Shown here in pieces: positions 22,153-25,099 of a stretch of DNA of 54,189 bases. Source of the stretch: Escherichia coli (lineage in GTDB: Bacteria > Pseudomonadota > Gammaproteobacteria > Enterobacterales > Enterobacteriaceae); assembly GCF_003334335.1 (NCBI RefSeq), contig NZ_QOWQ01000032.1; one strand, given 5' to 3'. The notes below the pieces were generated by a model. The model made no database searches, was not told the origin of the DNA, and saw only the letters and a list, made by a program, of their open reading frames with translations. Position 1 is the first letter of the stretch; the number at the start of each line of letters is the position of its first letter. The position numbers were made by a program, and so were the translations under genes.

Positions 22153-23328
22153 ATGCGTCTGTTTTCTATTCCTCCACCCACGCTACTGGCGGGGTTTCTG
22201 GCGGTATTAATTGGCTACGCCAGTTCAGCGGCAATAATCTGGCAAGCAGCGATTGTCGCCGGAGCCACCACTGCACAAATCTCTGGCTGGATGACGGCGC
22301 TGGGGCTGGCAATGGGCGTCAGTACGCTGACTCTGACATTATGGTATCGCGTACCTGTTCTCACCGCATGGTCAACGCCTGGCGCGGCTTTGTTGGTCAC
22401 CGGATTGCAGGGACTAACACTTAACGAAGCCATCGGCGTTTTTATTGTCACCAACGCGCTAATAGTCCTCTGCGGCATAACGGGACTCTTTGCTCGTCTG
22501 ATGCGCATTATTCCGCACTCGCTTGCGGCGGCAATGCTTGCCGGGATTTTATTACGCTTTGGTTTACAGGCGTTTGCCAGTCTGGACGGTCAATTTACGT
22601 TGTGTGGAAGTATGTTGCTGGTATGGCTGGCAACCAAGGCCGTTGCGCCGCGCTATGCGGTAATTGCCGCGATGATTATTGGGATCGTGATCGTCATCGC
22701 GCAAGGTGACGTTGTCACAACTGATGTTGTCTTTAAACCCGTTCTCCCCACTTATATTACCCCTGATTTTTCGTTTGCTCACAGCCTGAGCGTTGCACTC
22801 CCCCTTTTTCTGGTGACGATGGCATCGCAAAACGCACCGGGTATCGCAGCAATGAAAGCAGCTGGATATTCGGCTCCTGTTTCGCCATTAATTGTATTTA
22901 CTGGATTGCTGGCACTGGTTTTTTCCCCTTTCGGCGTTTATTCCGTCGGTATTGCGGCAATCACCGCGGCTATTTGCCAAAGCCCGGAAGCGCATCCGGA
23001 TAAAGATCAACGTTGGCTGGCCGCTGCCGTTGCAGGCATTTTCTATTTGCTCGCAGGTCTGTTTGGTAGTGCCATTACCGGGATGATGGCTGCCCTGCCC
23101 GTAAGTTGGATCCAGATGCTGGCAGGTCTGGCGCTGTTAAGTACCATCGGCGGCAGTTTGTATCAGGCGCTGCATAATGAGCGTGAGCGAGACGCGGCGG
23201 TGGTGGCATTTCTGGTAACGGCAAGTGGATTGACGCTGGTCGGGATTGGTTCTGCGTTTTGGGGATTAATTGCCGGAGGCGTTTGTTACGTGGTGTTGAA
23301 TTTAATCGCTGACAGAAACCGATATTGA
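22153..23328 (+). CDS. ydcO: BenE-family (benzoate-type) membrane transporter
   Basis: Track ORF 21892-23328 is over-extended from a GTG. ATG at 22153 gives MRLFSIPPP... of 391 aa, multi-TM. Stop codon abuts the IS609 end. Confidence 0.85.
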   Translation: MRLFSIPPPTLLAGFLAVLIGYASSAAIIWQAAIVAGATTAQISGWMTALGLAMGVSTLTLTLWYRVPVLTAWSTPGAALLVTGLQGLTLNEAIGVFIVTNALIVLCGITGLFARLMRIIPHSLAAAMLAGILLRFGLQAFASLDGQFTLCGSMLLVWLATKAVAPRYAVIAAMIIGIVIVIAQGDVVTTDVVFKPVLPTYITPDFSFAHSLSVALPLFLVTMASQNAPGIAAMKAAGYSAPVSPLIVFTGLLALVFSPFGVYSVGIAAITAAICQSPEAHPDKDQRWLAAAVAGIFYLLAGLFGSAITGMMAALPVSWIQMLAGLALLSTIGGSLYQALHNERERDAAVVAFLVTASGLTLVGIGSAFWGLIAGGVCYVVLNLIADRNRY

Positions 23329-23334
23329 CATCCT

Positions 23335-23354
23335 CCACGCCCTGAAGGACGTGG
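23335..23354. repeat. IS609 subterminal hairpin (tnpB-proximal, RE-like)
   Basis: ccacg-ccctgaagga-cgtgg, lying 14 nt beyond the tnpB stop codon. Confidence 0.5.
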
Positions 23355-23367
23355 ATCCCTGCTACGT

Positions 23368-24576
23368 TCAGGCTGTCGCCTGAATCATTTCGGTGGGTTC
23401 CTGCTTCAACGGGCGGCCTGACTGCACCATCTCTCCACAGGCAAGAACGGCGTGCCCCGCCGCTAAAATGTTGCGAGCGCCATTTACATCGGCGTTCGCT
23501 GTATATCCACATACCTGGCATCTGAATTTACTTTGTGACAGGCGGTTCTCTTTCGCTGTATGACCACAGTACGCGCAACGCTGGCTTGTATACGCTGGCG
23601 GAACAGCAAGCACCTGACCGCCACGCCAGAGCTGCTTGTACGCAAGCTGGCGGCGCATTTCATACCAGCCCTGATCCAGTATCGAACGGTTTAAACCTGA
23701 TTTTGCCCGGACATTGCGCCCCGGCTGGCTGACCGTACCCGCTGCTGACTTTGACATGTTGCTGACCTTCAAATCCTCAATGACTATCATTGCGTGGTTT
23801 TTGCTGACGGCCGTTGTGACTTTGTGAAGGTAGTCCCTGCGGATATTTGCGATACAGGAATGCAGTCGCTGTATTTTGCGTTTCTGCTTTTGCCAGTTGT
23901 TGCTGAATTTGACCTTGCGGCTTAACTGTCGCTGAAGTCTCGCCAGCTTCTTCTGGTTTTTCTGAAAACTGTTTACAGGCTCAAAGACTGTGCCATCTGA
24001 CAGCGTGGCGAGTTTAGCCACGCCAGCATCCAGCCCGACCATTGATGCTGAAGGGTGAACCGGAGTTGATACTTCACTTTCTGTCTGAATACTGATGTAC
24101 CACTTACCGCAGGACTGGCTGACAGTGACATTTTTCACAACACCCGTGACCTGACGGCTGTTCCGGTAGCGCATCCAGCCCAGTTTCGGCAGAAAAATAC
24201 GGCTGTTTTCCTGATCGAGCTTAACGCCCTGCGGGTAGCGGAATGCATCATTCTGTCCCCGCTTTTTGAATCGGGGAAAAGCAGCCCGCTTCCGGAAGAA
24301 GTTTTTGTAAGCCCGCTCAAGGTCTTTCAGTGACTGTTGCAATGGCTGTGAGGGAGAATCTTTAAGCCATTGCGTTTCAGTGGCATTTTTCCACTCAACC
24401 AGCCAGGAAGCCATTTTCCCGTAAGGGATGTATTTATTACCGGCCTCATGATTCTCATTCTGACGTGCCAGAGCACGATTGAAAACGAAACGACATGCGC
24501 CTGCGAAGCGCCTCATTTCACACTCCTGTTGACCACCGGGTCTTAACTGGAATTTAAATGCCTGTAATCGTTTCAC
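23368..24576 (-). CDS. insQ: TnpB (IS605 OrfB family, RuvC-like RNA-guided nuclease)
   Basis: 402-aa ORF with RuvC-I GLDAGV, Ruv[11 protein letters not shown], zinc finger CAYCGH...CQVCGY and RuvC-III DVNGARN all present. Annotated start may be the internal Met at codon 21 (382 aa). Confidence 0.85.
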
Positions 24577-24583
24577 AGGTCAA

Positions 24584-25090
24584 ATGATACTTTGGTCTGT
24601 GAAAAAAGAAACCGATATCCGGCGTGGAAGGCATTGTGTTTTCCTGATGCATGTTCACCTGCTCTTTGTCACCAGATACCGACGCCAGATTTTTGACCAT
24701 GACGCGACAGAAAAACTACGCACTTACTTTTCAAATGTATGTGCTGATTTTGAAGCTGAACTGGTTGAAATGGATGGCGAACCAGATCACGTCCATTTGT
24801 TAATTAACTATCCTCCCAAACTGGCGATATCCAGTCTGGTAAACAGCCTCAAAGGCGTATCGGGTAGGTGACTGCGACGAGATCGACCAGATATTGCATT
24901 CAGGTATTACTACAAAGGCGTTTTGTGGAGTCCTGGCTATTTTGCCAGTAGCTGCGGAGGTGCGCCAATATCCGTCATCCGCCAATACATTGAACAACAG
25001 CAAACACCTGGTCAGGTGGAAAACCGCGCCTTATATCCCCGCCCTGAAGGATGGGGTTTTACGGCGCACCGGATAAAAAGCGCCATCTAA
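24584..25090 (+). pseudogene. insP: IS200/IS605 TnpA (Y1 HuH transposase), frameshifted
   Basis: Frame 1 (24584-24871) encodes the HuH region (PDHVHLLINYPPK) and stops after ...KGVSGR. The C-terminal part with the catalytic Tyr (GVLWSPGYFASSCGGAPISVIRQYIEQQ) continues in the +1 frame to 25088-25090. Needs a 1-nt correction near 24869-24872. Confidence 0.7.
25037..25056. repeat. IS609 subterminal hairpin (tnpA-proximal, LE-like)
   Basis: ccccg-ccctgaagga-tgggg, with the same loop and orientation as the hairpin at 23335-23354, 1702 bp away. Confidence 0.5.
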
Positions 25091-25099
25091 CGATGGCGC
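25075..25099 (-). terminator. intrinsic terminator of ydcL
   Basis: Minus strand reads gcgccatc-gtta-gatggcgc followed by ttttt. Lies just outside the IS609 end. Confidence 0.5.

Follow-up and report, generated by a model that had tools for sequence, protein, structure and literature searches.

A chromosomal IS609 copy between ydcO and ydcL of Escherichia coli with an inactivated transposase gene and a seemingly intact TnpB/omega-RNA module

The window analysed here, a stretch of 54,189 nucleotides from Escherichia coli (contig NZ_QOWQ01000032.1, assembly GCF_003334335.1), carries between ydcO and ydcL a complete insertion sequence of 1748 bp (23325..25072, minus strand), which is the known single IS609 copy (IS200/IS605 family) of K-12-type genomes. 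Its intact tnpB gene, insQ, and its tnpA pseudogene are already annotated in RefSeq at identical coordinates, and correspond to insQ/ydcM and to the pseudogene insP/yncK of the K-12 element, from which the window copy shows no substantive difference; over 1931 bp a single nucleotide, at a synonymous base (23638), separates the window from W3110. The window copy shares 97.8% identity with the O157 copy, whose TnpA carries the RefSeq name “IS200/IS605-like element IS609 family transposase” and which was used as a proxy comparison for IS609 identity. The original prediction of an IS609-like member of the IS200/IS605 family, with hairpins replacing inverted repeats, is borne out by the RefSeq annotation, the W3110 match, the ends and the hairpins. 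The element is ordinary and represents no discovery: K-12 IS609 has been described as a single, non-transposing copy (PMC5009759, PMC2891674), and its immobility and the stop codon that its transposase gene carries have been published previously. IS609/insQ is part of the annotation of every K-12 record. A search of the literature on insQ, ydcM, ydcO and yncK in connection with TnpB found no study of a K-12 omega-RNA or of InsQ activity; one paper includes an IS609 TnpB among nine purified candidates.

The ends of the element were set by comparing occupied and empty sites. The minus strand is the top (active) strand, on which 25072 is the left end and 23325 the right end; an empty site reads ...CCGATA/ATAAAAAGCG... 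and the occupied one ...CCGATA/TTGACATCC...CACCGG/ATAAAAAGCG (slashes mark the joints), with no target-site duplication. Identical ends are found at three other E. coli loci, and position 23325 is also the limit of homology with about 45 related loci in at least 12 different flanks, the TnpB relatives in this comparison being drawn from viral contigs. Directly 5′ of the left end lies the pentanucleotide 5′-TTTAT (25073..25077, minus strand), which exists in the empty site and is part of the flank, not of the IS; this target or transposon-adjacent motif is the same at three independent E. coli insertions, and reads TTTAT, GTTAT, ATTAT, ATTAC or TTTAC in relatives. Insertion 3′ of a conserved motif (TTAT/TTAC in relatives) without duplication is the behaviour of the IS200/IS605 family. 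The right end terminates in ...GGATGTCAA on the minus strand. Of the extent initially proposed, 23325-25099, the left boundary coincides with the homology limit, whereas the right boundary lies 27 bp further in, at 25072, in the empty-site comparison: the target motif takes up positions 25073-25077, and the sequence at 25080-25099 is not that of the IS but the hairpin of the ydcL intrinsic terminator (GCGCCATC-GTTA-GATGGCGC followed by TTTTTAT, 25080..25099, minus strand). This terminator is unchanged in the empty site and lies outside the IS, and the target motif falls within its T-tract.

As in other IS200/IS605 elements, terminal inverted repeats are absent and a subterminal hairpin of like orientation is present at each end. 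The sequence CCCTGAAGGA occurs at 23341-23350 and 25043-25052 in direct orientation, 1702 bp apart, with complementary arms around each occurrence. The shared loop sequence, spacing and orientation that had been proposed all stand, but 5-bp arms closing a 10-nt loop do not, and the minus-strand reading is the better one, with a TTCA tetraloop on stems of 9 bp (right) and 8 bp (left) that include one T.G wobble. The right-end hairpin, TCCACGTCC-TTCA-GGGCGTGGA (23334..23355, minus strand; 9 bp with the one T.G), emerges from both the DNA fold and covariation: its stem is helix 9 of the consensus structure, with compensatory changes at 5 pairs, and it is also drawn by the sub-threshold Rfam alignments of sot0042 and HgcC. 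The last 9 nt of IS609, GGATGTCAA, follow it directly. The left-end hairpin, CCCCATCC-TTCA-GGGCGGGG (25037..25056, minus strand), is given by the DNA fold and the alignment of copies; it contains an A.C mismatch because of a T at 25052, which is common to all copies at the ydcO locus, while copies at other loci have a C and a perfect G-C pair. The hairpins stand 9 nt (right) and 16 nt (left) from the ends of the element.

The tnpA pseudogene (24584..25015, plus strand), identified by alignment to the intact O157 tnpA and by the NCBIfam model NF033573, encodes a Y1 HUH transposase interrupted by an in-frame TGA at 24869-24871 (codon 96, TTA to TGA, Leu96 to stop), downstream of the HUH motif (His69/His71) and upstream of the catalytic Tyr135. 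The 1-nt frame correction previously thought necessary is rejected, since the alignment with the intact O157 IS609 gene contains no indel and the lesion is a nonsense codon; the open reading frames 24584-24871 and 24923-25090 share one frame, split by the TGA. The O157 reference encodes an intact TnpA of 143 aa ending in TAG (25013-25015), and the frame in the window stays open to 25090 because CAG replaces that stop. The truncated ORF scores 99 bits against NF033573 (transpos_IS200) and the intact O157 allele 146 bits, and TnpA aligns to solved IS200/IS605 transposases with the HUH at 69-71 and Tyr135 matched. The lesion agrees with the stop codon reported to inactivate the K-12 IS609 transposase (PMC2891674). 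Because tnpA is dead, the element is unable to move by itself. An inverted repeat at 24571-24604, which covers the start codons of both genes, was considered as a regulatory hairpin and rejected, as it is not kept in relatives with the same layout.

By contrast with tnpA, the divergently oriented insQ/tnpB (23368..24576, minus strand; GTG start, 402 aa) is intact in the ORF list and in the RefSeq CDS. The encoded protein keeps the full RuvC triad, D183 (24028-24030), E267 (23776-23778) and D363, and the zinc-finger cysteines C334, C337, C353 and C356, as was originally proposed. It scores 380 bits against NCBIfam guided_TnpB (NF040570; cutoff 100), matches the Pfam families HTH_OrfB_IS605, OrfB_IS605 and Cas12f1-like TNB, and is matched by the ISDra2 TnpB structure 8exa at E=2e-54 with the catalytic residues aligned. 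The gene therefore looks intact, and the description of an immobilised element with a potentially active nuclease agrees with these data, in that the transposase is inactive and TnpB looks intact as judged from its residues. The TnpB of IS608 (HpyTnpB) was inactive in interference assays (bioRxiv 10.1101/2023.03.14.532601), therefore an intact sequence is no guarantee of activity. A consensus promoter scan of the minus strand returned no promoter-like site for tnpB or for an omega-RNA.

The predicted omega-RNA scaffold, of about 147 nt (23325..23471, minus strand, read from 23471 to 23325), takes in the final 104 nt of tnpB together with the right end. Its helices (23471-66/23333-28, 23463-58/23452-47, 23441-37/23404-00, 23433-26/23417-11, 23388-78/23373-64 and 23355-47/23342-34) come from an alignment of 21 relatives, in which 19 of the 50 consensus pairs show compensatory changes and 95.8% of the cells at paired positions are paired, against 37-46% when the partners are slid; none of 500 shuffles matched the observed values, and folding of the single sequence gives z=-3.1. 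In the window copy one helix contains an A.C mismatch (23432/23412). The Rfam matches on the minus strand (HgcC, RAGATH-18, sot0042) are all below the gathering thresholds; they are consistent with a minus-strand RNA and are no evidence alone. This strong covariation supports a structured omega-RNA across the 3′ end of tnpB and the right end, which would be expressed from the minus strand. A 16-nt guide, TATCGGTTTCTGTCAG (23309..23324, minus strand), is predicted just outside the IS from the TnpB/omega-RNA architecture, which was reportedly set out by Karvelis in 2021. The same architecture is described by Meers 2023 (bioRxiv 10.1101/2023.03.14.532601). Such a guide would run antisense to the last ydcO codons, in line with the earlier suggestion that it derives from the ydcO 3′ end, and TTTAT followed by TATCGGTTTCTGTCAG reproduces the joint of the empty site as read on the minus strand.

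The tnpB-proximal end had been described as abutting the ydcO stop codon. The position of this TGA (23326..23328, plus strand) is correct, but the element does more than abut it: the terminal TTGA of the IS supplies the stop. In empty-site strains a TAA lies one codon earlier, and YdcO ends in ...DRNR*, one residue shorter than the ...DRNRY* found with the IS, which adds one Tyr to the protein.

Across 5426 complete E. coli genomes, the ydcO/ydcL junction is occupied in 3265 (about 60%) and empty in 2044 (38%), and the element recurs with identical ends at several unrelated loci, plasmids and phages included. Among 15 sampled copies at the ydcO locus, tnpB is intact in every one and none has a living tnpA, which was lost to three different nonsense mutations (Glu62*, Tyr76*, Leu96*); one copy disrupted by IS66 distorted the tnpA alignment, and the lesions counted are those that recurred in separate comparisons. 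Comparison of the tnpB genes of these copies gives a dN/dS of about 0.35 (22 synonymous against 27 nonsynonymous changes; binomial p=4e-4), and in a subset of nine copies dN/dS is 0.30 for tnpB and 0.20 for the neighbouring ydcO, the latter computed without one locus carrying an indel. A dN/dS of about 0.3 is here a crude count from few alleles, and gene conversion from other IS609 copies could also explain it. The new detail of this locus is that tnpB has been kept intact, at a dN/dS of about 0.3, while tnpA died repeatedly.

The best explanation of these data, to which we give a probability of roughly 80%, is a chromosomal IS609 copy whose tnpA is dead and whose tnpB and omega-RNA scaffold are seemingly intact, with a nuclease that would act against loss of the element. 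In this explanation IS609 entered by single-strand peel-and-paste transposition, 3′ of the TTTAT in the ydcL terminator T-tract and without target duplication, its right end taking over the ydcO stop codon. The nonsense codon, which precedes the catalytic Tyr, blocks self-movement, which fits the zero new IS609 insertions in mutation-accumulation lines of K-12 (PMC5009759). TnpB, with an omega-RNA that carries the 16-nt ydcO antisense guide, would cut TTTAT followed by TATCGGTTTCTGTCAG; since this combination is confined to the empty ydcO/ydcL site, the nuclease would oppose loss of the element, and the occupied site would be protected because the guide match there follows the right end instead of the target motif. 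In other elements TnpB is known to cleave the donor joint (bioRxiv 10.1101/2023.03.14.532601), and other TnpBs have been shown to counteract such loss.

An alternative with a minor but real share of the probability is that the copy is a fully decaying relic, in which tnpB and the RNA are idle and intact merely for want of time. It would account for the death of tnpA in all 15 sampled copies and for the failure of K-12 IS609 to transpose (PMC5009759); the tnpB dN/dS of 0.3-0.35, with 27 amino-acid changes over 11 alleles, exceeds that of many core genes, and some copies at other loci do have a damaged tnpB, one with a premature stop and another with an 11-bp deletion. However, in the same sample the 432 bp of tnpA took three nonsense mutations, two frameshifts and the IS66 insertion, and the 2.8-fold longer tnpB took none; moreover, synonymous tnpB changes are in excess (p=4e-4), the dN/dS resembles that of the host gene ydcO, and the scaffold helices are retained. 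Far less probable is the domestication of TnpB for a host function, either a TldR-like RNA-guided regulation or a control of ydcO/ydcL expression. The constant place of the copy on the chromosome in 60% of E. coli genomes, the conservation of tnpB after tnpA loss, the altered ydcO stop codon and the separation of ydcO from its terminator by the insertion could be read in its favour, but the RuvC triad is intact, unlike that of the nuclease-dead TldR, the same element and ends recur at unrelated loci, plasmids and phages, the site is empty in 38% of genomes, and an occupied genome is by construction without a motif-flanked guide match. The loss of RuvC residues together with a fixed host target gene, which characterizes TldR-like proteins, is not seen for the window TnpB. 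Finally, the view of the two hairpins as chance repeats, REP-like elements or terminators can be discarded: taken alone, a direct repeat of 12 nt in 2 kb of sequence is just mildly improbable, and a genuine terminator hairpin does adjoin the left end, but each hairpin keeps a fixed distance to an end set by the empty site and several independent insertions, and the right-end stem covaries among relatives.

Within the preferred reading of a nuclease acting against loss, it is a tentative proposal, more doubtful than the reading itself, that the TnpB/omega-RNA pair is under selection at ydcO/ydcL despite at least three separate tnpA knockouts and the absence of any other IS609 transposase in K-12. 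A possible route could be an anti-loss (addiction-like) module, cutting the empty alleles that arise from excision or from recombination with IS-free strains. If this were true, TnpB could sustain a natural insertion polymorphism without a transposase. The tnpB-intact, tnpA-dead pattern offers an inexpensive natural way to ask whether a retention function of its own maintains TnpB after loss of the transposase. The ends, the TTTAT motif, the 147-nt scaffold, the 16-nt guide and the empty-joint target also provide a useful anatomy for experiments in K-12.

In ISDra2 of Deinococcus radiodurans, the RNA reaches over the 3′ end of tnpB and the right end and takes its guide from the flank, and the target motif is TTGAT. 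IS609 resembles it in the structured RNA over the same region and in the flank-derived guide, both predicted here from sequence, and the proteins align over their full length (PDB 8exa, 8h1j) and share the D-E-D triad and the CxxC...CxxC; unlike ISDra2, the motif of IS609 is TTTAT/TTAT and its tnpA and tnpB are divergent. A Y1 HUH transposase, subterminal imperfect hairpins, lack of duplication, an AT-rich motif and a right-end TCAA are features of the Helicobacter pylori elements IS605 and IS608, and all of them recur in IS609. The divergent tnpA/tnpB layout is shared with IS605, while IS608 differs in its motif (TTAC) and the TnpA similarity is distant (E about 1e-19). The ISGst elements of Geobacillus stearothermophilus follow the same logic, in which the TnpA target is the target motif and the scarless donor joint is what the guide matches; the TnpB2 of ISGst2 also uses TTTAT, and a working tnpA is absent from most members of the family (bioRxiv 10.1101/2023.03.14.532601). 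Unlike in ISGst, the donor joint of IS609 is present as a natural polymorphism, in the 38% of genomes with an empty site, and K-12 is without a TnpA to make it.

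The stretch at about 23.3-25.1 kb of the window is the ydcO / insQ / tnpA' / ydcL / tehB region of a K-12-like E. coli, and a 1931-bp query spanning the element region matched 5424 of 5426 complete E. coli genomes, with a single base difference from K-12 W3110 (at 23638, synonymous in insQ). In RefSeq, the tnpB gene insQ (23368-24576, minus strand) is an "RNA-guided endonuclease InsQ/TnpB family protein", and tnpA, starting at 24584, is a pseudogene ("IS200/IS605 family transposase") interrupted by an internal stop; tnpA and tnpB are laid out divergently, as in IS605. The O157 copy, 97.8% identical to the window element, has an intact TnpA of 143 aa, to which RefSeq gives the name IS609. 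The element is real, but it is already known and annotated; the original prediction was right in outline and wrong as to the kind of tnpA lesion and the right boundary, and what is mildly new is only that tnpA was lost repeatedly, with tnpB retained, at one fixed locus.

The empty site of strain L003, which lacks the insertion, reads ...AACCGATA/ATAAAAAGCGCC..., and the occupied site of the window ...AACCGATA/TTGACATCC...GCGCACCGG/ATAAAAAGCGCC..., so that the element spans 23325-25072 (1748 bp), with no target duplication and in an unambiguous register. The left coordinate first proposed, 23325, is therefore exact, and the right one, 25099, lies 27 bp beyond the true end, 25073-25077 being flank and 25080-25099 the ydcL terminator hairpin. 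Three other E. coli loci (ytfB/TetR gene, nrdR/DUF3251 gene and hslO/yhgE) carry copies with identical ends, ATAAA adjoins 25072 at each of the three loci whose right-hand junction is intact, and in about 45 related loci homology to the window breaks off exactly at 23325, beside at least 12 different flanks. On the tnpB strand, 5'-TTTAT lies directly 5' of the element and the other end closes with ...GGATGTCAA; viral-contig relatives have TTTAT, GTTAT, ATTAT, ATTAC or TTTAC in the same motif place. Such ends and target features are defining properties of IS200/IS605 elements.

The element inserted in the T-tract of the intrinsic ydcL terminator (hairpin at 25080-25099, minus strand, GCGCCATC-GTTA-GATGGCGC-TTTTTAT), between the convergent ydcO and ydcL. 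Since the left end begins immediately past this T-tract (25073-25099), the TTTAT target motif is a piece of the terminator tail. The insertion cuts ydcO off from the terminator hairpin common to both genes. The proposed comparison of the ydcO C-terminus with strains lacking the IS showed CGA TAA (...DRNR*) at empty sites and CGA TAT TGA (...DRNRY*) at occupied ones, where the IS terminus supplies the stop codon.

As for the subterminal hairpins, the repeated CCCTGAAGGA is real (23341-23350 and 25043-25052, 1702 bp apart), but the structure is better drawn on the minus strand, as TCCACGTCC-TTCA-GGGCGTGGA at the right end (a 9-bp stem including one T.G, 9 nt inside the end) and CCCCATCC-TTCA-GGGCGGGG at the left (16 nt from the end). 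The T.G wobble becomes a C.A mismatch when read on the plus strand, a pattern that fits the minus strand as the active one. At 25052, T is common to every copy at the ydcO locus and puts an A.C mismatch into the left-end stem of the active strand; copies at other loci have C. This T might reduce the mobility of the window copy independently of tnpA.

The 1-nt frameshift originally proposed for tnpA is ruled out: the two ORFs that had been joined share one frame with a TGA between them, and the element has no indel anywhere relative to the intact O157 gene. The TGA, at 24869-24871, stands where O157 has TTA (Leu96), with the HUH motif (His69/His71) 5' of it and the catalytic Tyr135 3'. Codon 144 is a TAG stop only in O157 and CAG in the window and every other sampled copy, so the frame stays open across the left-end hairpin and on into the flank; past the codon 96 TGA it ends at a TAA (25088-25090). 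A dead tnpA in the window agrees with mutation-accumulation lines having gained no IS609 insertion (PMC5009759).

The ydcO junction is occupied in 3265 of the 5426 complete genomes and empty in 2044. In all 15 ydcO-locus copies sampled (the window copy and 14 further fetched ones) tnpB is intact at 402 aa, and in all 15 tnpA is dead, via three nonsense alleles, Leu96* (K-12 type), Tyr76* and Glu62* (compared across L004-L008 and L075-L082 at ydcO, and L009 at nrdR/DUF3251); sub-lineages carry extra tnpA lesions, namely a 5-bp deletion, a 1-bp deletion or an IS66 insertion. Exact 58-59-mers bearing these alleles occur, at any locus, in 2598, 1018 and 719 records, respectively, which makes the lesions common alleles and not sequencing errors. 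The 11 tnpB alleles differ by 22 synonymous and 27 nonsynonymous changes (dN/dS ~0.35, synonymous excess p=4e-4, by crude counting in a small sample), and in a 9-copy subset dN/dS is 0.30 for tnpB versus 0.20 for ydcO. The retention of tnpB against the loss of tnpA suggests, from crude counting over 15 copies, that tnpB may be under purifying selection after loss of its transposase, although the low dN/dS could also reflect recombination between copies. Tyr76* is also present at the nrdR/DUF3251 locus (L009), which suggests either that a copy with a dead tnpA was mobilised in trans or that the copies have undergone gene conversion. Other elements have entered IS609 at ydcO, an IS3-family element interrupting the copy of MS 196-1 (database match H1, NZ_CP146681.1) and an IS66-family element taking the place of tnpA, with insQ still intact, in Survcare253 (L082, NZ_CP076305.1).

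The RuvC triad and zinc finger of TnpB are intact, as predicted: ISDra2 TnpB aligns to the whole length of the 402-aa ORF (E=2e-54) with D183, E267, D363 and Cys334/337/353/356 in place. The ORF matches NCBIfam guided_TnpB over its full length (380 bits, cutoff 100), as well as Pfam HTH_OrfB_IS605, OrfB_IS605 and Cas12f1-like TNB. Among solved structures, InsQ is matched best by an "AI-designed RNA-guided nuclease" (9yyg, E=8e-63), which outranks natural ISDra2 TnpB. A 14-nt inverted repeat with a 6-nt spacer (24571-24604) covers both divergent starts (tnpB GTG 24576, tnpA ATG 24584) and shows no conservation in relatives; these retain CATAGACCAAAGTATAAT, a -10-like box situated 7-10 nt ahead of the tnpB start, where the window has TATCAT.

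For the predicted omega-RNA, the element's last 190 nt (minus strand) were aligned with 20 distinct relatives (TnpB identity 47-97%). The RNAalifold consensus has 9 helices and 50 pairs, with compensatory changes in 19; 95.8% of cells are paired, versus 37-46% with partners slid 1-3 columns, and 0 of 500 shuffles attain the observed values. Covarying helices lie inside the coding region (23463-58/23452-47) and across the tnpB stop codon (23388-78/23373-64), where DNA recognition by the transposase alone would hardly explain the covariation. The closing helix pairs 23471-66 with 23333-28 and thus delimits a predicted scaffold of ~147 nt (23471->23325). An Rfam search returned no family at threshold and only weak matches (HgcC, RAGATH-18, sot0042), all on the scaffold strand and drawing the same stems. 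The 16 nt that follow the scaffold, TATCGGTTTCTGTCAG (23324->23309), are antisense to the ydcO end and, by analogy with known TnpB architecture, would serve as the guide. The empty-site joint is exactly TTTAT then TATCGGTTTCTGTCAG; where the site is occupied, ...GTCAA and not the target motif stands before the guide match. Experiments on ISGst elements, among them one that likewise uses TTTAT, have demonstrated such donor-joint logic (bioRxiv 10.1101/2023.03.14.532601), and the window's TTTAT plus predicted guide, equal to the empty-site joint, would follow it.

Beyond this locus, IS609-like sequences are common in Klebsiella, Escherichia and Salmonella plasmids and in P1-like phage-plasmids. 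Derivatives without tnpA, with ~88 bp between their left end and the tnpB start, are frequent on plasmids and prophage/phage-plasmid contigs (relative loci L015-L020, L025, L045 and L065; phages RCS47 and SJ46, matches H96-H100).
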